Assembly (NCBI GenBank): GCA_036558325.1
Contig: DATBFU010000067.1
Span: 5,536-69,535, forward strand
DNA length: 64,000 bases
Source: Thermoanaerobaculia bacterium
GTDB taxonomy: Bacteria; Acidobacteriota; Thermoanaerobaculia; UBA5066; Gp7-AA6
Reading direction: 5' to 3'
This document shows, in pieces, positions 5,408 to 60,483 of the stretch. The stretch's first letter is position 1. Each line of letters begins with the position of its first letter. A program made the position numbers and the translations under genes. The notes under the pieces are model-generated. The model worked only from the letters and a program-made list of their open reading frames with translations. It searched no databases and was not told the origin of the DNA.

Positions 5408-5854
5408 TCAGTCGGGAGGCGCCTCTTCCCGGAGGCGGCGGAGGTCTTCCGAAGTGAGACGATCCGCGGCGGCAGGGTAGTAGACCGCCTCCATTTCGCG
5501 CTCGTGCGCGGCCAGGCGGCGCCGGAGATTCTCGACGAGCCCGAGGACGTCTCCCAGCGGTGCGTTTCCGGAAGAGATCTCCCGCAGATGGCGCGTGAGC
5601 TCCCGCAGCTGGACGTACTGAAGCCGCAGCTCCCGCGCGGCATCTCGCCCCGGCACGCCGGCCTGCGCGAGGATCGGCAGCAGGACCTCCTCTTCGCGGT
5701 GAGTCCAACGGCGCAGACGTTCCTCGAAGTCGCGCAGGGCGAGCGACTGCGCGGCCCGGTCCCTCCGGTCGAGGGCACCGAGGAAGTCGTCGAACCTCGC
5801 GCGCAGGCGGCGCTGCGGCCCCAGGAGATCGGAGTCGCCGGAGGGAGCATTCAT
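5408..5854 (-). CDS. hemerythrin-like (HHE cation-binding) domain protein
   Basis: 148 aa. HREEEVLLPI...HLREI...AAHEREMEAVYYPAA resembles hemerythrin HHE helices. Confidence 0.45.
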   Translation of the reverse strand: MNAPSGDSDLLGPQRRLRARFDDFLGALDRRDRAAQSLALRDFEERLRRWTHREEEVLLPILAQAGVPGRDAARELRLQYVQLRELTRHLREISSGNAPLGDVLGLVENLRRRLAAHEREMEAVYYPAAADRLTSEDLRRLREEAPPD

Positions 5855-5859
5855 CGCTT

Positions 5860-6438
5860 CTAGAGGCCCGCGAGGCCCGGCTCGATTCTTTCGAAGCCCT
5901 CTTCACGCGCCCAGAGATCGAGCGAGAGGGAGAGAAGATCGTCCACCTCTGGAATCGGCCTCGTGTCCTCCGAGAGGTCGATCGACTTGACGTACCGGCG
6001 GCATGTTTCGCAGGCCTCGATGCGGACGAGAGGATGTTTGTCGGTCTGAAACGAGGGCAGCCGGCGCGGATCTTCCTCGAAGCATGCGGGACAGAGGATC
6101 CGCGCGAAGAGCCATTCGCCGCCGCACAGCGCGCAGACGAGCATCCGCTTGGCGCCCTCCATCAGGGAGCCTTCGCGGCGCGCGCCCATGACGGGCGCTC
6201 CTCCGCAGAAGGGGCATTGTCCGCGCCGGTGGATCCGATCGGGTGCGATCGCAGCGATGCGGAGGACTGCCACATAGGGCCGCAGGGCTGCCCGGATCAG
6301 GTAGTCCTCCCCCCGCAGCGCATCGCCGCCCCAGTAGGACAGGAGGCGCGTTCGCGCCGTCTCGGGGGGGTCGCCTTCGCGGGCGCGGGCCGCGTCGGCG
6401 AGAGACGGCGGCCCCGCCTCCGCGGCGTACCGTGCCAC
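5860..6438 (-). CDS. fdhE: formate dehydrogenase accessory protein FdhE (coordinates from first canonical GTG; homologous reading frame is open up to 6675)
   Basis: Four CxxC pairs (CPFCGG, CALCGG, CPAC, CETCRRY) match the FdhE Zn-ribbon C-terminal domain. In the same frame upstream, RRAARAESLLAEAPAAPDALRFASGLFHLQ resembles the FdhE N-terminal region, but it has no ATG/GTG/TTG. Confidence 0.7.
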   Translation of the reverse strand: MARYAAEAGPPSLADAARAREGDPPETARTRLLSYWGGDALRGEDYLIRAALRPYVAVLRIAAIAPDRIHRRGQCPFCGGAPVMGARREGSLMEGAKRMLVCALCGGEWLFARILCPACFEEDPRRLPSFQTDKHPLVRIEACETCRRYVKSIDLSEDTRPIPEVDDLLSLSLDLWAREEGFERIEPGLAGL

Positions 6439-6649
6439 CGCAGCAGTGTTTGAGAGGACGCGCTCGAAGTCGCGGTCGAGATGCCCGGAGAGCGGTTGTC
6501 GGGAGTGCGAGGACTCGAGCTCGGCGGCGATGCGGCTCTGGAGATGAAACAGCCCGGAGGCAAAGCGCAGCGCGTCCGGGGCGGCGGGCGCCTCAGCGAG
6601 AAGCGACTCCGCGCGCGCCGCCCGCCGCTCGAGCTCCGCCGCGGCGGGT

Positions 6650-7348
6650 TTAACGGTGGACGGGGTCCTCGCCCGTCACCTCGCGGTACCAACGCGGATG
6701 GTGCAGGCGGGCCCAGGGTCGCGTGACCGTGCCGCGCGTCATCGATCCGAAGGTCCCCGGCTCCGCCGCCGTGCCGAGATAGACGTGGAAAACGAGCGAG
6801 ACGGCGAAGCAGACAAACGTGAAGTCGTGAAGGAGATAGGAGAACTCGACGAGAAGCTTCGGAAAGCTCTGCGGAAACCAGATGACGAGCCCCGACAGAA
6901 GCAGTCCCACGGCGCCGAGGGAGACCGCCCAGAAATAGAGTTTCTGGCCGCCGTTGTATTTGCCCGTGCGGGGATCGTCCGTCTCGTAGCGCATGTATCG
7001 GATCGCCCGCGAGCCGAACCAGTCGCGCTCCCAGGTCTCGACGTGCATGTCGCCGATCCACTCGACGAACTGAATCCCCGCCGCGATGAAGAAGGCGACT
7101 CCGGCCCAGGGATGCAGCAGGCGGCAGACCGTGAGCCCACCGAAGAGATAGGCCATCCAGCCGAAGACCGGCGTCCAGATCGCCATTCCCGTCAGCATCG
7201 CGACGACGAAGGTTAGAGCGACCGACCAATGGATCACGCGGGACGCGAGCCGATGCCGGACGATTTCGTTGCCGACGACCACGTCCTCTCGGTGGCGGCC
7301 CGCGACGATCGCGGAATCCATGGGGCGTTTCGGTACGACCGCGCTCAT
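6650..7348 (-). CDS. fdnI: formate dehydrogenase-N gamma subunit (cytochrome b556, FdnI)
   Basis: RVIHWSVA...HPWAG...GKYNGGQKLYFW...RPWARLHHPRWYREV matches the FdnI/FdoI family. GGAGG RBS 7 nt before the ATG at 7348. Confidence 0.85.
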   Translation of the reverse strand: MSAVVPKRPMDSAIVAGRHREDVVVGNEIVRHRLASRVIHWSVALTFVVAMLTGMAIWTPVFGWMAYLFGGLTVCRLLHPWAGVAFFIAAGIQFVEWIGDMHVETWERDWFGSRAIRYMRYETDDPRTGKYNGGQKLYFWAVSLGAVGLLLSGLVIWFPQSFPKLLVEFSYLLHDFTFVCFAVSLVFHVYLGTAAEPGTFGSMTRGTVTRPWARLHHPRWYREVTGEDPVHR

Positions 7349-8256: not shown

Positions 8257-11200
8257 TCATGCCTTCTCGAGCTGGACGAGGAAGGTCTTGTATTCAGGCG
8301 TCCACGTGTTGGGGTCCATGGCCGAAGGCGTCAGGAAGTTGGCCAGCGGACCGGTGTGACCGGGAGTCGCGTCGTAACCCCAGTGCAGCGGAAAACCGAT
8401 GTACCACTGCGTCTTGCCGTTGACTTGGAGCGGACGGAGACGCTTGGTCACCATCGCGACCCCCTCGACGGAGCCGCGCGCGGAGGTTACGCGGGCGCGG
8501 CCTCCGTTGACGATCCCCTTCTCTTTGGCGAGCTCCTCCGGAATCTCTATGAAGAAGCCGGGCTGGAGCTGGTTCAGTCGGTCGATGTTCTTCGTCCAGT
8601 AGTGGTACATCTCGGTCAAGCGGTAAGTGGTGCAGATGATCGGAAACTTATCCGCCGTGCCGTAGACGTCCTTGTCCGTCTTGAACCGCTTGGTCGCCGG
8701 GTTCGAAGTCACCTTCGGATGGAGCGGGTTCTCGATCGCCGCCTCGACCGCCTCGTAGTGCTCGGGGAAGGGCCCGTCGTTCAGCGGCGCGAAGATCTTC
8801 CCCACCCCTTCCGGTAGCATGATGAAAGCGCCGTACTCGCCGGGCGGCGCGTCGGGCTTCATGTCGGGAACGTCTCCGACCCATTTTTCTCCGTTCCATT
8901 TGATGCCGACCCGCGTGGGGTCCCAGGGCTTACCCTCCGCGTCCGCCGATGCCCGGTTGTACATGACGCGGCGATTGGCGGGCCAGGAAAAAGTCCAGTT
9001 GTGGTACATGCCCAAACCAGACGGATCGTCGATCGAATTTCGGCGCTGGGTCAGGTTTCCGGCTTCCGTGAAGCAGCCGGACATCAGCCAGTTGCCGCAC
9101 ATCGTCGTGCCGTCGTCCTGCAGCTGGCCGAAACCATCGACCTGTTGTCCGGCGGTCTTGAGGACCTTCGTCTTGTCCTTGGGGTCGGGGATGTCGGCGA
9201 GCGCCCGTCCGTTCAGCTCCTTGAGGCATTCCGCCAGGTCCGGCGCCACGGGGTTGCTGTAGGACCAATCGATGTTGAGCACTGCCTCAGGAAGCGCACC
9301 GCCTTCCTTGCGGTAGAGATCCCTCACGGCGAGGAAGATGCGAGAAAGGATCTCCTGATCCGACCTGGCCTGCCCGGGGGGATCCACGGCCTTCCATTTC
9401 CACTGGATCCAGCGCGCGGAGTTGGTGAAGCTCCCGTCCTTCTCGGCGAACGTCGCGGCGGGAAGCTGGAACACCTCCGTCGGGATCTTCGAGGCCTCGG
9501 ACGTCCCGTATTCTTTGGGGGCCTGCCAGAAGTTCGCCGTCTCGATCTCGTGATTCTCTCCGACGACGAGCCATTTCAGCTTGGAGAGAGCGGCGATCAT
9601 CTTGGGAGAGTTCGGCCCGATCCCGACGGGATTCATTCCGAACGTGATCAGGCCCTCCGGTCCGGGCTCCTGTCCTCCGGCGCGCGTCGAATTTCCGCGG
9701 TACATGTCGTCGAAGATGTACATCCAGGAGTAATTGCCGTCGACCTTGGGGAGCCAGGCGTATCCAAATTCGTTTTCTTTCGTGCCCGCTTTGCCGTAAG
9801 TCGCTTTCAGCAGCGAGGCCATGAACTTGGGATAGTTCTGCCAGTAGTTCATCGACGGCCCGAGCGCTTTGGGGATGTTGGCCTCGTTGTACTCCTTGAG
9901 GCTCTGCCACTGGGACTGCGGGGTCTTGACATATCCGGGAAGGATTTCGAACGTGCCCGCGGTATCCGTCGCCCCCTGGATATTCGAGTGCCCGCGCAGG
10001 GCGTTGACGCCGCCGCCGGGCCGGCCGACGTTGCCGAGAAGGAGCTGCAGCATCGCCGCCGTGCGGATCATCTGCACCCCGACCGAATGCTGCGTCCAGC
10101 CGAGCGCGTACATGATCGTTCCGGCGCGCTGCGCGTTGCCCGTCGATGTCACGACCTCGGCGACCTTGAGAAACGTGTCCTTCGGGGTGCCGCAGACCCT
10201 TTCGACCATCTCCGGCGTGTAGCGGTCGACGTGCTTCTTCAGGAGCTGGAACACGCAATTCGGATCCTGAAGCGTCCGATCGGTCTTCGCGAAACCGGTC
10301 TTCGCCTCGGTCTGATAGGCCCAGGTGTCCCGGTTGTAGCTGCCGGAGGCTGCGTCGAAGCCGGAGAACAAGCCGTCGTCGAACTCGAATGCCGGGTTGA
10401 TCAGAAGAGGGGCGCTCGTGTGGATCTTGACGTAGTCCTCGTGGTAGCGATTGTTGGCGATCGCGTAACGGATGATGCCCAGCAGATACGCGATGTCGGT
10501 GCCCGGCCGGATCGGGGAATAGAGATCGGCGACCGCGCCGGTGCGCGTGAAGCGCGGATCGACTGCGACGATCTTGGCGTTACGAGTCTTCTTGGCCTCG
10601 ATCGCCCATTTGAAGCCGCAGGGATGGTTCTCGGCGGGATTGCCTCCCATGCAGAGGACGACATCGGCGTTCTTGATGTCGACCCATCCGTTGGTCATCG
10701 CTCCCCGGCCGAACGTGGCGGCCAAACTGGCCACCGTCGGCCCGTGTCAAACCCGGGCCTGGCTGTCCCGGTACGGCACCCCCAGGGCCGTGATGACCTT
10801 CCATTGGAGCCAGTTGAATTCGGTGGTGTCCGTGCAGCCACCGATCATCGCGATGCCGGGAGTGCGATTGACGACTTGTCCCTTCGCGTTCTTCGCGACG
10901 AAAGTCTTGTCGCGCGTGTCCTTGATGTGGCGCGCGATCTTGGCGACCGCTTCGTCCCAGCTGATGTCCTCCCAGTGATCCGATCCCGGCCGTCGGACCT
11001 TCGGCTTCATCAGGCGGTCTTTGCTGATGATGTCGTCCTTCACGGTCGCGCCCTTGGGGCAGAGCGTTCCGCGATTGATCGGATGGTCGGGGTCGCCTTC
11101 GACATGGACGACGGCGGCCGTCGCGTTCTTCGCCTTGTCGCCGAGAGTATGGATGATCATTCCGCACGAGACCGCGCAGTACGGGCAGGTACTTCGGGTC

Positions 11201-11328
11201 TCGGTGGTGCGCGAGATCTTGAACTCGCGCATCTCGGCTTGCGCGTCGGAAACGTCGAAGCCGAGCGCGATCGACGTTCCGATGCCGGTTGCCTTGAGGA
11301 ATCCGCGTCGCGAGATCTGCACCTTCAT
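8257..11328 (-). CDS. fdnG: formate dehydrogenase-N alpha subunit, selenocysteine-containing (in-frame TGA at 10747-10749), Tat signal
   Basis: Two adjacent track ORFs (10747..11328 and 8257..10734) are in the same frame, separated only by TGA. The flanking peptide DSQARV-U-HGPTVASL matches E. coli FdnG ...ARVUHGPTVASL. The N-terminus SRRGFLKATG is a Tat motif. Confidence 0.9.
10700..10746 (-). promoter_or_regulatory. putative SECIS hairpin immediately downstream of the Sec UGA of fdnG
   Basis: mRNA ACGGUGGCC-AGUUU-GGCCGCCACGU can fold as a bulged stem-loop about 10 nt after the UGA, as bacterial SECIS elements require. Confidence 0.4.
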
Positions 11329-11379: not shown

Positions 11380-12246
11380 TCAAGATCGATCTACAGGAAT
11401 GCGATATTTCGGATCCCGACCGATTCCCGCGGGGTCGCCGCCGAGGACCCGCCGCGAATGGCTGTACACGTTGAAACGGCGCTCCCTCAGGAAGCCGACG
11501 AGCGTCACGCCGCCCGCGTCCGCCAGCTCGACGGCGAGGCTCGACGGCGCGGAGACCGACGCGACGACCGGGATCCCGGCGTTGTACGCTTTTTGAACAA
11601 TCTCGAAGCCCGCGCGGCCGGAAACCATCAGGATCCGGTCGCCCGCCGGGACGGCGCCGTCACGGAAGAGGCGTCCGACGAGCTTGTCCGTGGCGTTGTG
11701 GCGCCCGATGTCTTCGCGCACCGCCAGACGGGATCCGGTGGCGTCGAAGAGCGCCGCCGCGTGAAGGCCTCCAGTCCGGGAAAAGACGGATTGCGACTCG
11801 CGGAGCTTGTCCGGGAGCCCGTAGAGGACCTCCGCCGCGACGCGGAGTGGGGATGTCAGGGGAGGGCGCCCCGCCGGGAGGATCGCGTCGATGGAGGTCC
11901 TTCCGCAGACGCCGCAGGCGGAGCCCATGACCGTCGAGCGCCGCAGGGCGCGGGCGCGCCCGACAGCCTCGGGCCGTACCGTGGCGATCAGGACGTTCTC
12001 GCGCATGTCCGATTCCATCCGGGGGTCGGAGGACCGGCGCAGGGAACACAGATCCGCCGGAGTCGCCAGGACCCCCTCGGCAAAGAGCAATCCCGCGGAG
12101 AGGTCCTCGTCCTCTCCGGGGGTCCTCATCGTGACGACGAAGGCCTCGGGCGACCCGCCGTTTTCCTCCTGCAGCCGGATCTCGAGTGGCTCCTCGACGG
12201 CGAGAGAGTCCTCGCGCTCGCGAACGTCGTCTCCGTCGCGGGACAT
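11380..12246 (-). CDS. fdhD: formate dehydrogenase accessory sulfurtransferase FdhD
   Basis: GRHNATDKLVG and SGRAGFEIVQKA motifs, CGVCG. Internal ATG at 12244-12246 chosen (about 288 aa, like E. coli FdhD). Confidence 0.85.
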   Translation of the reverse strand: MSRDGDDVREREDSLAVEEPLEIRLQEENGGSPEAFVVTMRTPGEDEDLSAGLLFAEGVLATPADLCSLRRSSDPRMESDMRENVLIATVRPEAVGRARALRRSTVMGSACGVCGRTSIDAILPAGRPPLTSPLRVAAEVLYGLPDKLRESQSVFSRTGGLHAAALFDATGSRLAVREDIGRHNATDKLVGRLFRDGAVPAGDRILMVSGRAGFEIVQKAYNAGIPVVASVSAPSSLAVELADAGGVTLVGFLRERRFNVYSHSRRVLGGDPAGIGRDPKYRIPVDRS

Positions 12247-12359
12247 CACGCGAACGGACTGGTACGGCTTCACGCGGCGATCGTACCAAGCGAACGCCCC
12301 CGGGGTCGTTCCGAATGTCGGGACGGAGGCGCGAACGCCTCCGTCCCGGCATCCTTCTC

Positions 12360-21149: not shown

Positions 21150-23117
<1,968 letters not shown>

Positions 23118-23152: not shown

Positions 23153-24322
23153 ATGGCCCCGGTGACCAATCTCGAGTCGGTCTTCGACGCGCGGACGCTC
23201 GCGCGCCTGGATCGCTGGCGGAAAGCGCGTGCTCTCTTCCTCCGACCCGACACCACGACGGCCGAACGCGCCCTCTCGGAGATCCTGGAGAAACGGTGGC
23301 TGCGCGCGCAGGTCTACGGGCGGGCGCGTCGCGTGCTGGCCGAGCGGATCCCGTTCCTGCTGCCGGAGCTGCTGCAGAAGCTCGGACCGGCGGCGGAGCA
23401 GGTGCGCGTCTCGCCCGAGGACATGAACCAGACCAAATGGGACGCGATCGGGAACCTTATGCCCCTGACGCTCGCCTGCCGGCAGGTGCGCGCGCTGTGG
23501 CTCCTCGACGTTCTGCGTTCCGGGAGCATCTACGTCGAGTTCCAGCCGATCTTCGATCTGCGCAGCGGCGAGGCGTTGGGCTACGAGGGCCTTCTGCGCG
23601 GCCAGTCTCCCGACGGGGCACGGCACCTCGCGGCCGAAATCTTTCCCGCGGCGGTCGTGCTCGGCATCGAGGCGCCGTTCGAGAGGCTTTCCTGGATCTC
23701 CGTTCTCGACGCGGCCAAGCGGCTGCCGTCGGAGTCCATGGTCTTCCTGAACGTGAACCCGGAGCTGCTGGCCGCGGCGGATTCCTCGCTCGCGCGCCTC
23801 GGAGAGGAGGCGGAGCGGATGGAGTTCCCGTACGCCCGCCTCGCTCTCGATCTCGTCGAGATCGAGCGGATGCAGTCGCTGGATCTCCTGCAGAAGGCGC
23901 TCGCCGTTCCGCACGACCTGGGCGTCGCGATCGCGCTCGACGACGTGACGTCGGGCTACGGGACCCTCAAGTACTGCTCCGGCCTCGCCCCGCGTTGGAT
24001 CAAGGTGGACAGCGAGATCACGCGCAGCATCCGCGGAGACGCCCAGCGCCGGGCGATCCTGCAGCTGCTCGCCCAGGTCGCGCGGGAGGCGCGCGTGGGT
24101 CTCATCGCGGAAGGCATCGAGTTCGCCGACGATCTCGACGTCTGCCTCGAGGAGGGCGTCTTCGCGGCGCAGGGCTACTTCCTGGCGCGCCCCGGTGCCG
24201 AGCCGCCCGAGCCGACCGAGGAATTTCGGTCGTGGCTCGAGGCGCGCCGCGGGACGGCGGGGGAGCCGCGGCCGGCCGCGCCGGTCGAGACGGCGGACGC
24301 CGAGCCCGCCGACGACCTGTAG
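23153..24322 (+). CDS. EAL-domain protein (c-di-GMP phosphodiesterase-like, atypical EFQ in place of EAL)
   Basis: YVEFQPIFDL...ALDDVTSGYGTLKY...WIKVDSEITRSI...EGIEFADDLDVCLEEGVFAAQGYFLARP matches the EAL fold. Confidence 0.75.
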   Translation: MAPVTNLESVFDARTLARLDRWRKARALFLRPDTTTAERALSEILEKRWLRAQVYGRARRVLAERIPFLLPELLQKLGPAAEQVRVSPEDMNQTKWDAIGNLMPLTLACRQVRALWLLDVLRSGSIYVEFQPIFDLRSGEALGYEGLLRGQSPDGARHLAAEIFPAAVVLGIEAPFERLSWISVLDAAKRLPSESMVFLNVNPELLAAADSSLARLGEEAERMEFPYARLALDLVEIERMQSLDLLQKALAVPHDLGVAIALDDVTSGYGTLKYCSGLAPRWIKVDSEITRSIRGDAQRRAILQLLAQVAREARVGLIAEGIEFADDLDVCLEEGVFAAQGYFLARPGAEPPEPTEEFRSWLEARRGTAGEPRPAAPVETADAEPADDL

Positions 24323-24350
24323 CGCCGGAGCGCCCCCCGCGGAGGACGCC

Positions 24351-24746
24351 CTGGCGCCGCCGGAATCCTCGCCCGAAACGGTCCGCGTCGACGTCTGGCT
24401 CGACGTCGCGTGCGTCCTTCCGACGCGGGCCCAGGCGAAGCTCGCCTGCGAGGGCGGCAAGGTGGACGTCAACGGAGAGCGCGCGCGGGCGCATCGGCGC
24501 ATCCGCGAGGGCGACCGGGTGGGCGTGACGACGCCGCGGGGACGGCGGGAGCTCGTCGTCCGGGGCCTCGCGGAGCGCTCCATTCCCCGGTCCCTCGCGC
24601 GAACCCTCTACGAGGACGTCACCCCGCCTCCGTCGGCCGAGCAGATCGAGGTGCGGCGGCTCGATCGGATGCTCGCCCCGCGGCGGGACGAGGGCCGGCC
24701 GGATCGGAGAGAGCGCCGGGAGCGCCGCCGGCGCAAGGGCTGGTAG
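24351..24746 (+). CDS. ribosome-associated heat shock protein Hsp15-like S4 RNA-binding protein (start unresolved; CTG at 24351 proposed)
   Basis: VRVDVWLDVACVLPTRAQAKLACEGGKVDVNGERA aligns to E. coli Hsp15 VEVRLDKWLWAARFYKTRALAREMIEGGKVHYNGQRS. There is no ATG/GTG/TTG between the EAL stop (24322) and the domain. GGAGGA lies 4-5 nt before the CTG at 24351. The alternative is ATG 24195 overlapping EAL by 128 nt. Confidence 0.55.
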   Translation: MAPPESSPETVRVDVWLDVACVLPTRAQAKLACEGGKVDVNGERARAHRRIREGDRVGVTTPRGRRELVVRGLAERSIPRSLARTLYEDVTPPPSAEQIEVRRLDRMLAPRRDEGRPDRRERRERRRRKGW

Positions 24747-49412: not shown

Positions 49413-50434
49413 CCATCAATTATAGGGCCGCCGTCGATCCGCAGCCCCCCGGTATCATCCGGGCCACCATGGACACGATCACTCACGGCATCGCGGGCGG
49501 CGTCCTGGCGCGGTCGGCTTCGGATCGGCCGGGGGCGCGCGCGGCGGTCGCGATCGGGCTCATCGCGGCGATGCTGCCGGACCTCGACATCCTCTACATC
49601 CGCACCCGGCTCGACTACCTGCGCTACCACCGCGGATTGACACATTCCTTCGTCGTGCTGCCGGTCTTCGCGCTCCTCGTCGCGCTGGCGGCGCGTCTCG
49701 TGTTCCGGCGCGCGCGGCTCACGACGCTCTGGCTCTTCGCGGCCATCGGGATCGCTTCGCACATCGTCCTCGACTGGATCACGTCGTTCGGCACGATGTT
49801 CTTCTTTCCGCTGTCGCAGCACCGCTACTCGCTCGACTGGGTCTTCATCCTGGACCCTTTCTTCACCGGGCTCGCGGCGCTGACGCTCTTCGCATCGCTC
49901 GTGTACCGGAGCCGCGGACGCGCGATCGCCGTCGCGGGGTCCTCGGCTCTGGCCGTCTACGTCGCGTTCTGCGCCGTGCAGCACGCTCGCGCTCTCGACG
50001 CCTGGCGCCGCGCGGACCGGCCGCCGCTCGGCTCCCGGGTCGCGGCGCTGCCGCAGTTCCTGTCGCCCTTCCGCTGGCTCGGGCTGTCGGATCGGGGCGA
50101 CGCCGTGGACGCCGGCTTTTTCGACGTCGGCCCGTTCGCGCGGGGCGTGGACGATCCCCGCCCCCCGCGGCGGTTCTCCGAAATCCTCGCGAGCCTCGCC
50201 GACTTCTATCCGCCGATCGCGCGCGTCAAGATCCGGCGATTCCCCCACCCGCCGCCGTCTCCGGCGCTCGCGGCGGCGCGCTCCCGGCCGGACGTCGAGG
50301 CCTATCTGCGTTTCGCGCGTTTTCCGCGGGCCGTCGTGCGCGCCGGACCCGGCGGCGGCACCGAGATCGTCTGGGAGGACCTGCGTTTCCTGCCCTGGTT
50401 CGCCGGACCGTGGCAGATGGACGCGAAAGGCGTG

Positions 50435-55539
<5,105 letters not shown>

Positions 55540-55806: not shown

Positions 55807-56499
55807 TCAGGGAAAAAGATCCAGCAACTCCCGAAGCTTCGCGACTCGCTCGACTCCCTCCGGGGCCGCGCCCGTTCCGATGAGGATCGCGTGCAATCCC
55901 GCCGCCTGCGCGCCGAGCACGTCGATCTCGTAGATGTCGCCGACGTAGGCGCAGGCCTCGGGCGGAAGGTCGAGGCGGTCGGTCGCGGCGCGGAAGATGC
56001 GCGGGTCGGGCTTCTCGAAGCCGACTTCGGACGAATCGACCACGAGCTCGAGAAACGGCGCGAGGCCGGCGCGCTCGAGCAGCCCTCGCACCCGGCCGTC
56101 GGCGTTCGAAACGACGCCCATCCGGTAGCCGCGGCGCGCCAGGGCTTCGAGCGTCGGGGCCGCGTCCGTGGAGGCCCGGGACCAGAGGTTCGAGCGCCGA
56201 TGCTCGGCCGCGATGCGCTCGGACGCCGCGCGCCGCTCGTCGGGCCGGATTCGGAGATCCGAGAGGATCGCCTCGAGGAAGAGCGGCAGCCTTTCGGCAT
56301 CCGTCGAGCCGGGCCGCTCGAGCACGAGACGCTGCACCGCGGCGACGCCGGCCGCCTCGGCGCGATCGAACGCGCCCTCATCCCAGGAGAGTCCGGCGGC
56401 GGCGGTGAGGCGCTCGCCGTCCACGCGAATGAGCGTGCCGCCGGCGTCGAAGAGGATGGCCCGGGCGCGGTCTCGACTCGCGGGCCGGCCGCCTTTCAG
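55807..56499 (-). CDS. HAD-family hydrolase (haloacid dehalogenase-like), start unresolved (CTG overlapping glmM stop proposed)
   Basis: AILFDAGGTLI motif I, VVSNADG motif II, GDIYEIDV motif IV. No ATG/GTG/TTG between the glmM stop and motif I. A CTGA overlap and GGGAG lie 8 nt upstream. Confidence 0.65.
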   Translation of the reverse strand: MKGGRPASRDRARAILFDAGGTLIRVDGERLTAAAGLSWDEGAFDRAEAAGVAAVQRLVLERPGSTDAERLPLFLEAILSDLRIRPDERRAASERIAAEHRRSNLWSRASTDAAPTLEALARRGYRMGVVSNADGRVRGLLERAGLAPFLELVVDSSEVGFEKPDPRIFRAATDRLDLPPEACAYVGDIYEIDVLGAQAAGLHAILIGTGAAPEGVERVAKLRELLDLFP

Positions 56500-57833
56500 T
56501 GGGGCAGCTCCCGCTTCGCGACGGACTCGAGCTCGTCGGCGACCGAGAGCACCTCCTTTTCGTCCCGTCCTTCGACGAGGATCCGCAGGAGGGCCTCCGT
56601 GCCCGAGTAACGGAGGAAAACGCGACCGCGGCCGGCCAGGGCGTTCTCGGCGCGCCGCACGGCCTGGACGAGCGCGGTCACCTCCTCGAGCGGGACGCGC
56701 CGCGCCGCCCGCACGTTGCGGAGCGACTGCGGCACCTTCTCGAGCGTCGCGAGACGGCCGAGGCTCCCGCCGTTTTCCGAGAGGATCCGGGCGAGAGTCA
56801 GGCAGGTCAGGATCCCGTCGCCCGCCGGCGAGAGCGACAGGAGGATGTGGCCGGAGGTCTCGCCGCCGATCGTCGCGCCCTCCTCCTCCATCTTGCGCGC
56901 GACGTTGCGGTCCCCGACCGCCGCGCGGTGGAAGGCGATGCCTTCGCGGCCCAGAGCCGCCTCGAGGCCGAAGTTGGACATGACCGTGCCCACGACGCCT
57001 CCCGGCGCGAGCCGACCCTGCCGCTTCCATTCGCGCGCGACGATCCAGAGGACGTCGTCTCCGTCGAGGATGCGGCCGGTTTCGTCGGCGAAGATCGATC
57101 GATCCGCGTCGCCGTCGAACGCGACGCCCATCGCCGCGCCGCGCTCCTTCGTCCGCCGCGCCATGCCCTCGGGGTGAAGGGCGCCGCACCCGCGATTGAT
57201 GTTGCGCCCGTCGGGCGCGACCGACATCGTCTCGACGCGCGCGCCGGCTCGGGTCAGCGCCGCCGGCCCGAGCTCCCAGGCGGCGCCGTTGCCGGCGTCC
57301 ACGACGATCGCGAGACCCGTCAGGTGCGCGGGCATCAGCGCGGCCAGCCGGTCGAGGTAGGCGCGCGCGAGCGCCGGATCGCGGCTCGGGGCGTGGCCGT
57401 TCGAAGAGTCCGGGGCGTCCGCAATCCCGTCGCGGCCAGCGAGCAGGATTTCTTCGAGCGCCTGTTCGTCCGCGTCCGGCCACTTCCGGCCGTCGGGCCC
57501 GAAGATCTTCACGCCGTTGTCCTCGTAGGGATTGTGAGACGCCGAGACCGACACGCCGGCGCCGGCGCGGCATTCGAGGACGAGCTCGGCGATCCCGGGC
57601 GTCGTCATGACGCCGGCCGCGGCGACCGCGCAGCCGCTCTCCGCGAGACCCGCGGCCAGACGAGCGATCATCCGCTCCGTGGACTCGCGCGTGTCGCCGC
57701 CGAGGACGACCGGCGGCCGGCCGGCCCGGACGACCCGGCGGCCGAGCTCGCGTCCGATGCGGACGAGCGACGCGTCGTCGAGCGGGAACTCTCCCGCGCG
57801 GCCGCGAAGCCCGTCGGTGCCGAAGAGCCTCAT
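56496..57833 (-). CDS. glmM: phosphoglucosamine mutase
   Basis: SASHNP active-site serine loop, FDGDADR, GETSGH. Confidence 0.95.
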   Translation of the reverse strand: MRLFGTDGLRGRAGEFPLDDASLVRIGRELGRRVVRAGRPPVVLGGDTRESTERMIARLAAGLAESGCAVAAAGVMTTPGIAELVLECRAGAGVSVSASHNPYEDNGVKIFGPDGRKWPDADEQALEEILLAGRDGIADAPDSSNGHAPSRDPALARAYLDRLAALMPAHLTGLAIVVDAGNGAAWELGPAALTRAGARVETMSVAPDGRNINRGCGALHPEGMARRTKERGAAMGVAFDGDADRSIFADETGRILDGDDVLWIVAREWKRQGRLAPGGVVGTVMSNFGLEAALGREGIAFHRAAVGDRNVARKMEEEGATIGGETSGHILLSLSPAGDGILTCLTLARILSENGGSLGRLATLEKVPQSLRNVRAARRVPLEEVTALVQAVRRAENALAGRGRVFLRYSGTEALLRILVEGRDEKEVLSVADELESVAKRELPH

Positions 57834-58549: not shown

Positions 58550-59329
58550 TCAGCGGCCCGTGGCGAACTCGCGCAGGAGCGAGTCGCGCAGGGACTTGGC
58601 GTCGAGCTCGTCGAGCAGCTCCCCCTGGCGCGCGAGCGACACCGTGCCGCGCTCCTCGGAGACCACGATGGCCAGGGCGTCGGTCTCCTCGGTGATGCCG
58701 ATTGCGGCGCGGTGGCGGGTCCCGTAACGCTTCGAGAGGCTGTCCTTCAGGGTCAGCGGAAGGAAACAGGAAGCGGCGGCGATCCGCTCCCCCGAGACGA
58801 TGACGGCGCCGTCGTGCAGCGGTGTGCCGGGCGCGAAGAGCGTCACGAGAAGATCATAAGAGACGGACGAATCGAGCCGGACGCCGTTCTCGATGTATGC
58901 CTTCAGTCCCTCCTGCCGCTCGAGCACGATCAAGGCGCCGACGCGGCGCGTCGAGAGCGACGTCGTCGCGAGCACGATCTCCGAGATCAGCTCCTCGGCG
59001 TGGTACGAGGAGAACCAGAGCGGCGTGCGGCCGAACGCCGCGAGGGCGCGCCGCAGCTCCTGCGCGAAGAGCACGATGATCCCGAACGGCAGGTAGAAGA
59101 TCAGGGTCTTCAGGACCTCGCGCAGCGTCGCGAGGCGGAGCGCCACGGCGAGCCGGTAGACCAGGAAGACGATCAGGAGCCCGACGACCATCTGGACGGC
59201 GCGGGTTCCGCGGATGAGCCGCAGCAGCGTGTAGGCGATCAGGGCGACGGCGAGGATGTCGATGGCGTCGCGCCAGGTGAACGCAAGGCGCGAGAGGGCG
59301 CCGAGTGGTCCGGAGAGGCGTTCGATCAC
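58550..59329 (-). CDS. cdaA: diadenylate cyclase CdaA (DisA_N / DAC domain, membrane-anchored)
   Basis: Three N-terminal TMs, DGAVIV and RHRAAIGI DAC motifs. GTG 59327-59329 overlaps the folP stop (GTGA). Confidence 0.9.
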   Translation of the reverse strand: MIERLSGPLGALSRLAFTWRDAIDILAVALIAYTLLRLIRGTRAVQMVVGLLIVFLVYRLAVALRLATLREVLKTLIFYLPFGIIVLFAQELRRALAAFGRTPLWFSSYHAEELISEIVLATTSLSTRRVGALIVLERQEGLKAYIENGVRLDSSVSYDLLVTLFAPGTPLHDGAVIVSGERIAAASCFLPLTLKDSLSKRYGTRHRAAIGITEETDALAIVVSEERGTVSLARQGELLDELDAKSLRDSLLREFATGR

Positions 59330-60483
59330 CGGGCCTCCGACGTCGCGGGCGTTCGGGCGGTCGCGGCCTCGGGCCGCGCGATCGCCCGCGTCATGCGCAG
59401 GAACCGCACGGTGTCCGCCACGTCGTGGACGCGCACGAGCGCCGCCCCGGCGGAGGCGGCCGCGGCGACCGCGGCGAGCGAGCCGGGGAGCCGCTCGGCG
59501 GCGGAGGAGTCCTCGGCCACTCCGGAGAACCGGCGGACGAAGCCCTTGCGCGAGGCGCCGACGGCGACCGGATAGCCGAGCGTCCGGAGGGCGTCGAGGT
59601 GGCGGAGAAGAATCAGGTTGCCTTCGGGGCTCTTTCCGAAGCCGAGTCCCGGGTCGACGGCGATCTTTTCGGCGGCGACGCCGGCCGCGCGCGCCGACGC
59701 GGCCGCGGACGCGAGCGCCTCGGCGACGTCCGCGACGGGGTGCGCATACGTCGTGTCGTCCTGCATGCGTCGCGGATCGTCTCCGCGCATGTGCATGAGG
59801 ACGAGTGCCGCCCGGGCCGCCGCGACGACGCCCGCCATCTCCCGGTCGTGGCGCAGCGCGGAGACGTCGTTGACCGCGTCGGCGCCCTCCGCGAGCGCGG
59901 CCCGCGCCACCGCGGCCTTGCGCGTGTCGATCGAGAGGGGAGCGGCGCTCGCGCGGCGGATGCCGCGAATCACCGGGACGATCCGGTCGAGCTCCTCCTC
60001 GAGCGGGACCTCGGAGGCTGCGCCGTAGTTGGCCGGCCGCGTCGATTCTCCGCCGACGTCGACCATGTCGGCCCCTTCCTCGAAGAGACGGAGCGCCCGC
60101 TCGACGGCGCGCCCGCGGTCGAAGGCGAGGCCGCCGTCGGAGAAGGAATCCGGCGTGACATTCACGACCCCCATGACGAGCGGCGCCGATGCGAGATCGA
60201 GCGCCCGGCCGCCCGCGAGCCCGAGGCGCGCCGGCGCGCGCTCGGCCCGCTCGAAGGCCGCCCGTGCGCGGTCCCGCAGCGTCGCCGGGAGGGCCTTCAG
60301 CGTTTCGGTGCGGCGGGCCCGGGAGACGACGACCGGCGGGGAGGCCGACCCGGAGAAGCGGACGACGTCCACCGGGAATTCGGCGGCGGAGAAGGAGGGA
60401 AGCCGGACCGCGTCCCACCCGGCGACCTCCGCCAGGGCCTCGCGGTCCTTCGCCGGGAAGACCAGGTCCGATTCGGCCGCCAC
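59326..60483 (-). CDS. folP: dihydropteroate synthase with about 95-aa N-terminal extension
   Basis: LVMGVVNVTPDSFSDGG...VDVGGESTRP...DPGLGFGK is a canonical DHPS core. The first ATG gives an extra N-terminal region of unknown function. An internal ATG at MGVVNVT would give a short form like S. aureus. Confidence 0.8.
   Translation of the reverse strand: MAAESDLVFPAKDREALAEVAGWDAVRLPSFSAAEFPVDVVRFSGSASPPVVVSRARRTETLKALPATLRDRARAAFERAERAPARLGLAGGRALDLASAPLVMGVVNVTPDSFSDGGLAFDRGRAVERALRLFEEGADMVDVGGESTRPANYGAASEVPLEEELDRIVPVIRGIRRASAAPLSIDTRKAAVARAALAEGADAVNDVSALRHDREMAGVVAAARAALVLMHMRGDDPRRMQDDTTYAHPVADVAEALASAAASARAAGVAAEKIAVDPGLGFGKSPEGNLILLRHLDALRTLGYPVAVGASRKGFVRRFSGVAEDSSAAERLPGSLAAVAAAASAGAALVRVHDVADTVRFLRMTRAIARPEAATARTPATSEAR

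Follow-up and report, generated by a model that had tools for sequence, protein, structure and literature searches.

NCBI translation table 11 lists the near-cognate codons CUG, AUU, AUC and AUA as starts, and infC and pcnB of Escherichia coli start with AUU. In E. coli, CUG supports initiation at approximately 1-2% of that obtained with AUG, and individual constructs span 0.02% to 3% (bioRxiv 10.1101/063800). Annotated non-canonical starts make up about 0.05% or less in model genomes, compared with 81.8%, 13.8% and 4.35% for the canonical codons (10.1101/063800). The NTGA stop-start overlap (-4 nt) is the commonest spacing and coupling geometry in prokaryotes (PMC6728339, PMC12548453). One review of stop-start overlaps was not found to discuss CTGA overlaps, and our literature searches turned up no publication dealing with CTG starts in Acidobacteriota. 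In this study, we analyzed a stretch of 64,000 nt (69% GC), here called the window, from an uncultured soil acidobacterium whose protein matches point to Acidobacteriota, class Thermoanaerobaculia. A first-pass annotation had pointed to three genes in it, fdhE, an hsp15-like S4-domain gene and a HAD-family hydrolase gene, whose conserved N-termini lie ahead of any ATG, GTG or TTG, and its descriptions of all three sites were accurate. It had proposed either recurrent CTG initiation or three assembly indels. We assign a probability of about 0.7 to the reading that the three sites are two different things, namely CUG starts in the hsp15-like and HAD genes and a lost start in fdhE.

Survey of the window and integrity of the junctions

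Coding onsets were surveyed with a codon-usage log-odds scan, which was used instead of a gene-set filter on GC content at the three codon positions (GC3/GC1/GC2), dropped because antisense frames passed it. Among the 56 gene-like segments of the window, only fdhE, the hsp15-like gene and the HAD gene were without a canonical start near the coding onset, with the window-edge segment and two marginal cases set aside. Gene callers (JGI, Prodigal-type) shorten these three genes to 192, 94 and 205 aa, respectively (P0002, P0343, P0121). The first-pass annotation had expected such mis-starting. Prodigal leaves CTG out as a start (PMC2848648).

Junctions base-identical to the window were found by exact-protein look-up in metagenome assemblies from other samples, at fdhE in L003-L005, at the hsp15-like gene in L012-L014 and at the HAD gene in L008. 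Relatives differ from the window at the three sites by substitution, not by frameshift. All three sites are real sequence, and none is an assembly error. The window is probably derived from a metagenome-assembled genome, where local errors occur, and indels or miscalls could in that case mask canonical starts. However, each junction recurs in one to three assemblies from other samples, diverged relatives share the CTG states, and the fdhE difference is a substitution, with an in-frame 6-nt change as the sole indel. We give almost no credence to sequencing or assembly errors, and the suggestion of three indels was not borne out.

CTG at the start positions of the hsp15-like and HAD genes

The features of the hsp15-like locus are as follows.
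24351..24746, forward strand: hsp15-like S4-domain gene, read from CTG 24351 (131 aa, the same length as orthologue P0241)
24341..24346, forward strand: GGAGGA Shine-Dalgarno sequence, with a 4-nt spacer to CTG 24351-24353
24462..24464, forward strand: first downstream canonical start, a GTG inside the S4 domain, and the start chosen by the JGI caller (94 aa, P0343)

The S4 domain is recognized by Pfam at 31.6 bits (cut-off 22.8) and starts 10 codons past the CTG. The Hsp15 equivalog NF007673 is not reached (50.6 bits against a cut-off of 148). Since only the S4 domain passes its threshold, the product is named an Hsp15-like S4-domain protein. The EAL-domain gene upstream ends with TAG 24320-24322. 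Approximately one-third of the window genes carry a strong GGAGG motif 5-8 nt upstream of their start, and the hsp15-like CTG has the same context.

Where the window has LAPPES.., the orthologues start with MAPPES.. or MVLPES... In L010, the codon opposite the CTG is GTG, and in the MAPPES.. orthologues it is ATG. CTG was found at the same codon in four distinct lineages, namely the window, L011, L095 (a long-read metagenome-assembled genome) and L096, at a synonymous divergence (dS) of 0.18-0.53, and a GGAG-type motif is kept in L011, L095 and L096. Over the 27 S4 codons missing from the callers' models, pN/pS (nonsynonymous to synonymous differences per site) is 0.086 across five lineages. 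CTG-only hsp15-like genes of the CTGA type were also found in independent clades (L110; L130/L132/L133; L142), with no canonical alternative for at least 46 codons. In L110 (DATIBN010000033.1), the NCBI annotation (PGAP) starts at the CTGA-type CTG, giving P0293 with 'MTAAES', 9 codons before the D of DVWLD. Outside the window clade, approximately 5 of 75 species carry CTG at the Hsp15-like start.

Some Hsp15-like homologues show a different arrangement. L128, L135 and L139, which have WLHV for WLDV, lack any ATG, GTG, TTG, CTG or ATH over the 40 codons that precede the S4 motif. These homologues may be fused to the upstream open reading frame.

The first-pass annotation had described the CTG with GGAGGA upstream and the S4 domain 10 codons on, which stands; the caveat is that the frame is open upstream, with a GTG at 24195 inside the EAL-domain gene. 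A start at this GTG, 128 nt inside the EAL-domain gene, would give 183 aa with a 52-residue extension, and an open reading frame is listed from there. However, this position is not conserved in L011, L095 or L096. The nearest upstream canonical codon lies at -65 in the window, is absent from 139 codons in L011, and is a TTG at -94 in L095 and at -50 in L096. Moreover, coding potential begins only at about 24330, GTG 24195 has no Shine-Dalgarno sequence, and the orthologues are 122-145 aa long. A start at GTG 24195 is extremely improbable. In the preferred reading, the initiator tRNA would read CUG 24351, aided by the strong GGAGGA Shine-Dalgarno sequence.

The features of the HAD locus are as follows.
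55807..56499, reverse strand: HAD-family hydrolase gene, read from CTG 56499 (230 aa; Pfam Hydrolase 82 bits, residues 13-201)
56496..56499, reverse strand: CTGA junction, with the HAD CTG (56499-56497) over the glmM TGA (56498-56496)
56422..56424, reverse strand: first canonical start in the HAD gene, a GTG located after the Asp nucleophile codon 56448-56446, and the callers' start (205 aa, P0121)
56496..57833, reverse strand: glmM, the upstream partner of the overlap, with four PGM_PMM domains

The overlap of the CTG with the glmM stop codon, and the position of canonical GTG 56424 after motif I, are as the first-pass annotation gave them. In the window, the HAD frame can be followed back from the CTG over 193 codons without meeting a canonical start, and GGGAG is present 8 nt upstream of the CTG. 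Motif I reads DAGGT where the HAD pattern is DxDxT, so that the nucleophile Asp is present and the second Asp is Gly. A motif I of this type occurs in haloacid-dehalogenase-like and REG-2-like members, but the HAD subfamily models score below their cut-offs. Some HAD orthologues (P0217, P0225; 390 aa) are fused to a GNAT acetyltransferase domain.

The closest HAD proteins in databases outside the window's own population are 82-85% identical and all 205-206 aa long. The window, L006, L007/L016 and L015 (82-86% amino acid identity) all end glmM in a CTGA whose CTG shares the frame of motif I. Within this clade, dS is 0.45-0.66 and omega is 0.15-0.19. The linker from the CTG to the motif is nearly unalignable but stays in frame, with 16, 10, 16 and 16 codons, where an 18-nt deletion makes the difference. 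No canonical alternative that keeps the HAD domain lies within 187 or more codons, and the open HAD frame of L007 and L015 is without any canonical start. The L015 frame is closed by a stop 11 codons ahead of the CTG, which is the sole NTG or ATH codon between this stop and the motif. The 12 codons cut off by callers have a pN/pS of 0.16 across four lineages. ATC 56457, two codons ahead of the motif, was rejected as the HAD start, being CTC in L007 and L015 and hence not conserved. Readthrough of the glmM stop codon into the HAD gene was also rejected, as it would be in the wrong frame.

The callers could be right if both genes started at their downstream GTGs and the upstream homology were an untranslated remnant, and many truncated models do stand in databases (P0121-P0127, P0242, P0343). 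However, the short HAD protein would be without its Asp nucleophile and the short Hsp15-like protein without half of its S4 domain, and both genes, cut-off segments included, show strong purifying selection in lineages that have no canonical start. We take the HAD product to be the full form with its nucleophile, because a dead enzyme without it would not stay so conserved. The first-pass annotation had counted orthologues that start at the downstream codons as evidence against its proposal. The HAD sisters P0122-P0127 (205 aa) are indeed annotated from GTG, yet their DNA has the same CTGA junction, and their downstream starts are therefore the same caller artefact. We consider downstream starts quite improbable. 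The comparison with relatives that had been called for gave ATG, GTG or TTG at the corresponding codon in the hsp15-like and HAD genes, and GTG in fdhE.

Among 45 metagenome loci, the HAD NTGA junctions comprised 17 GTGA, 11 ATGA, 11 CTGA and 6 TTGA. CTG was found in 4 of 27 HAD clusters (at 78% identity), and the clusters most similar to these have ATG or GTG at that codon. Therefore, CTG arose at least four times in HAD genes. The N of NTGA is the third base of the last glmM codon and can vary silently when GlmM ends in Ala, Ser, Val or Thr. At a GC3 of approximately 0.85-0.9, C would be expected about as often as G, but C is approximately threefold rarer and A and T are strongly enriched. 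From these counts, we read CTG at the HAD junction as selected against but viable.

Ribosomes that end glmM translation would reinitiate at the overlapping CUG 56499 by termination-reinitiation coupling across the 4-nt CTGA. Because the C is the third base of the last glmM codon, ATGA or GTGA could become CTGA by drift. GC-biased drift at this third position would make the change, and the weaker start would be tolerated.

Two observations weigh against the assignment of CUG starts. The frame upstream of the hsp15-like CTG is open in all four CTG lineages, and stops do not limit a longer product. CTG is also the commonest Leu codon at 69% GC, so that its presence alone means little; the case for CUG is built on where the codon lies relative to orthologous starts and on how it is conserved. 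The direct observations are the codons present at each site, the canonical starts to which they correspond, the way they persist and recur among lineages, and the signatures of selection. From this comparison, we infer that CUG is the initiating codon in the hsp15-like and HAD genes, with predicted N-termini. The proposal of recurrent CTG initiation thus holds for these two genes and extends beyond this organism to sister lineages and independent clades; it fails for fdhE.

Other candidates in the window were set aside. The two marginal survey segments were read as onset overshoot. The scan also flagged fdhD (11380-12315), read in the same way, as were the segments 49415-50524, 51505-53679 and 58550-59368, which have a canonical start within 13-20 codons or a GTGA overlap. 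A CTGA at 23114-23117 (forward strand) lies where an acetyl-CoA synthetase-like gene ends and shares the frame of the EAL-domain gene. Canonical starts of the latter follow 13-16 codons downstream (23153/23162), and this CTGA is probably coincidental. A crude scan of the fetched loci, in which the non-target sample was small, found no further CTG-only NTGA junctions beyond the target genes.

Probable loss of the ancestral start codon in fdhE

The features of the fdhE locus are as follows.
5860..6672, reverse strand: fdhE coding region, from the ancestral-start codon GCG to the stop TAG 5862-5860 (75% identical to P0001 over the full length)
6670..6672, reverse strand: GCG at the ancestral GTG start of fdhE, with T-to-C at 6671 (DNA alignments with L001/L002 and L179)
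6676..6678, reverse strand: in-frame TGA closing the fdhE frame upstream
6436..6438, reverse strand: first canonical start in the fdhE frame, a GTG 79 codons after the TGA, and the JGI caller's start (192 aa)
6650..7348, reverse strand: fdoI, the cytochrome b subunit gene, with the stop TAA 6652-6650, whose 3' end overlaps the ancestral fdhE start

The conserved region from RRAARAE to LRFA lies between the TGA and GTG 6438, in frame as first described; the fdhE N-terminal part includes ELERRAARAESLLAEAPAAPDALR. In the stop-to-stop translation, TIGR01562 (FdhE) aligns to residues 4-264 and PDB 2fiy, an FdhE homologue of solved structure, to residues 25-267. The TIGR01562 score of 81 bits against an equivalog cut-off of 187.65 indicates family membership and not equivalog-level identity. 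Pfam FdhE_central and FdhE_C score 31.5 and 39.9 bits (cut-off 27), and the four CxxC motifs (CPFC, CALC, CPAC and CETC) are all present. Approximately 120 FdhE homologues of about 272 aa begin with V or M approximately 17 residues before RRAARAE.

In the closest relative (L001/L002; P0001, 75% identity) and in L179, the fdhE start is a GTG that lies 23 nt inside fdoI and forms part of ACG-GGT-GA. At the P0003 locus, the annotated genes overlap in the same 23-nt geometry. The window reads ACG-GGC-GA, and the T-to-C change is synonymous in the fdoI Gly codon (GGT to GGC) and runs in the direction of the GC3 bias. The GGGCGA version of the window is identical in L003-L005. A full-length fdhE open reading frame with a start codon was thus not found, as GCG stands in place of the ancestral GTG. 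Between the TGA and RRAARAE, there is no ATG, GTG, TTG or CTG and no near-cognate codon except AGG 6669, and the first CTG, at 6570, is inside the conserved region. A CTG start, which the first-pass annotation had extended to fdhE, can therefore be dismissed for this gene. GTG 6679 was rejected as a start because it belongs to the fdoI frame, and translation from it would end after 9 residues.

A Tajima relative-rate test was performed between the window and its sister P0001, with 117 other homologues as the outgroup, and the alignment was split at GTG 6438. Upstream of this codon, unique replacements numbered 13 in the window and 2 in the sister (p=0.007). Downstream, they numbered 8 and 11, respectively (p=0.65), and Fisher's test between the two regions gave p=0.013. 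These results suggest that the N-terminal part, orphaned by the start loss, is under relaxed constraint. The ancestral GTG inside fdoI would have used the T of the Gly codon GGT, and the silent T-to-C change would have made it GCG. In the most likely outcome, full-length FdhE would be made poorly or not at all, and its N-terminal domain would be under relaxed constraint. On this comparative evidence, the fdhE start was probably lost and the gene is weakened or decaying.

Several observations weigh against decay. The relative-rate signal comes from 15 sites. For the orphaned part, dN/dS in pairwise comparison remains low, at 0.154 compared with 0.168 for the rest, and the three replacements that it has at highly conserved positions are conservative (A to S, Y to F, R to H). 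Nothing interrupts the frame, whose one length change is a 6-nt in-frame deletion relative to L001 and L179, at approximately 6645-6650 (reverse strand), just past the fdoI stop. GTG 6438 is without a Shine-Dalgarno sequence. In an AlphaFold model of FdhE (N-terminal domain pLDDT, the predicted local distance difference score, 80-94; a modest 70.5 overall), a start there would cut helix 65-86, the third helix of a six-helix N-terminal domain.

These observations bear on the possibility that full-length FdhE is still made, by initiation at GCG 6672 or at the near-cognate AGG 6669, with help from the Shine-Dalgarno-like GAGGTGA just upstream or from ribosomes that terminate fdoI 20 nt downstream scanning back. 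The intact frame and the low dN/dS of the N-terminal part fit this possibility, as does the poor alternative, which would begin mid-helix without a Shine-Dalgarno sequence. Codons that are not near-cognate initiate at 0.01-1% of AUG in E. coli (10.1101/063800). FdhE is an assembly factor, of which a small amount may suffice, and the rest of the formate dehydrogenase operon is intact, including its selenocysteine codon and SECIS element. The ATC start position of another FdhE lineage, seen in four assemblies, would indicate tolerance of non-canonical starts at this junction. However, two bases of GCG fail to pair with the initiator anticodon, as does the middle base of AGG, GCG is confined to one lineage, and the N-terminal part evolves faster in the window lineage. 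We therefore regard continued full-length synthesis as a tentative possibility. Either fdhE lost its start recently or full-length protein continues to be made to some extent, and we rate an impaired or decaying gene somewhat above one that is still translated by non-canonical initiation.

A fusion of FdoI and FdhE would be another route to the N-terminal part. The fdhE frame is +1 relative to fdoI, and a tRNA-Pro could slip on CCC-G 6664-6661, which is preceded by GAGG and lies 9 nt before the TAA. The FdoI C-terminus is presumably cytoplasmic, by analogy with E. coli FdnI. However, unlike in prfB, the CGU-UAA at the stop cannot re-pair in +1, the Shine-Dalgarno spacing is wrong, and the relatives have a normal separate start. 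We consider a +1 frameshift near the fdoI stop very improbable.

The other FdhE lineage is represented by P0093 and was found in four JGI assemblies (L175-L178). Its ATC start position, identical in all four, directly follows the fdoI TAG (e.g., L177 816-830), and callers annotate P0093 as a truncated protein of 240 aa. A non-canonical codon at the fdoI-fdhE junction is therefore not unique to the window. A broader explanation for all three sites would be that Thermoanaerobaculia use CTG, and occasionally ATC, as a routine extra start codon. Such codons would be generated by GC-biased third-position drift in adjacent or overlapping upstream genes and tolerated by less strict reinitiating or Shine-Dalgarno-bound ribosomes (e.g., through differences in initiation factor 3 (IF3) or the initiator tRNA), and the GCG or AGG of fdhE would still yield FdhE. 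This explanation seems unlikely to us. The tRNA scan of the window found only tRNA-Thr and no initiator tRNA, and infC was not searched for.

Two neighbors of fdhE were also recorded. The formate dehydrogenase alpha subunit is a selenoprotein with an in-frame TGA at 10749-10747 (reverse strand) and an Rfam SECIS_3 match of 66 bits (10694-10752), and tools for open reading frames split its gene into 10747-11328 and 8257-10746. A hemerythrin-domain gene (5408-5854, reverse strand) follows fdhE, as it does in L003 and L179, which suggests that it is conserved as part of this formate dehydrogenase cluster.

Consequences for annotation and comparison with known systems

Because Prodigal ignores CTG, IMG- and ENA-type annotation of this clade contains a HAD protein that lacks the catalytic Asp, an S4 domain cut to half and an FdhE cut to two-thirds. 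These truncated models spread as cluster representatives (P0121-P0127, P0242, P0343, P0002, P0093). P0293 of L110 shows that PGAP can call CTG starts where Prodigal cannot. Non-AUG starts, and their annotation by PGAP, are already known. What these data add is how often the same genes carry CTG across the class and the link to third-position drift in the neighboring gene. The NTGA junctions form a natural series with a free first base, in which C is under-represented compared with G and persists over a dS of approximately 0.5. This series offers a rare comparative estimate of the cost of a CUG start. In the case of fdhE, a start embedded in an overlapping gene could be erased by a change invisible to selection on the other gene, fdoI.

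The fdhE site resembles start loss in overlapping genes and incipient pseudogenization in that a point mutation removed the start and the orphaned 5' part evolves faster. It differs in that the mutation is silent in fdoI and follows the GC3 bias, and in that the frame is intact and the downstream part constrained. As in prfB +1 frameshifting, the fdhE frame is +1 and opens near the in-frame stop of the fdoI frame. Unlike prfB, the fdoI-fdhE junction has no re-pairing slippery codon (CGU-UAA-A), no proper Shine-Dalgarno spacing and no conservation, and its CCC-G has GAGG 1 nt upstream.

The hsp15-like and HAD genes resemble known near-cognate starts in that a codon one base away from AUG occupies the orthologous start site downstream of a Shine-Dalgarno sequence, presumably to be read by the initiator tRNA, and low expression is expected. 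Unlike those starts, the same two genes carry CTG in approximately 7-15% of the lineages sampled, far above the approximately 0.05% or less that non-canonical codons make up among the annotated starts of model genomes. For the two CTG codons, no regulatory role comparable to the autoregulation of infC is evident. The glmM-HAD pair also corresponds to termination-reinitiation coupling, as the two genes are co-directional with a 4-nt overlap and the orthologous junctions are ATGA, GTGA and TTGA. It departs from this geometry in that N is C at the glmM-HAD junction, and dependence of the HAD product on glmM translation is predicted.

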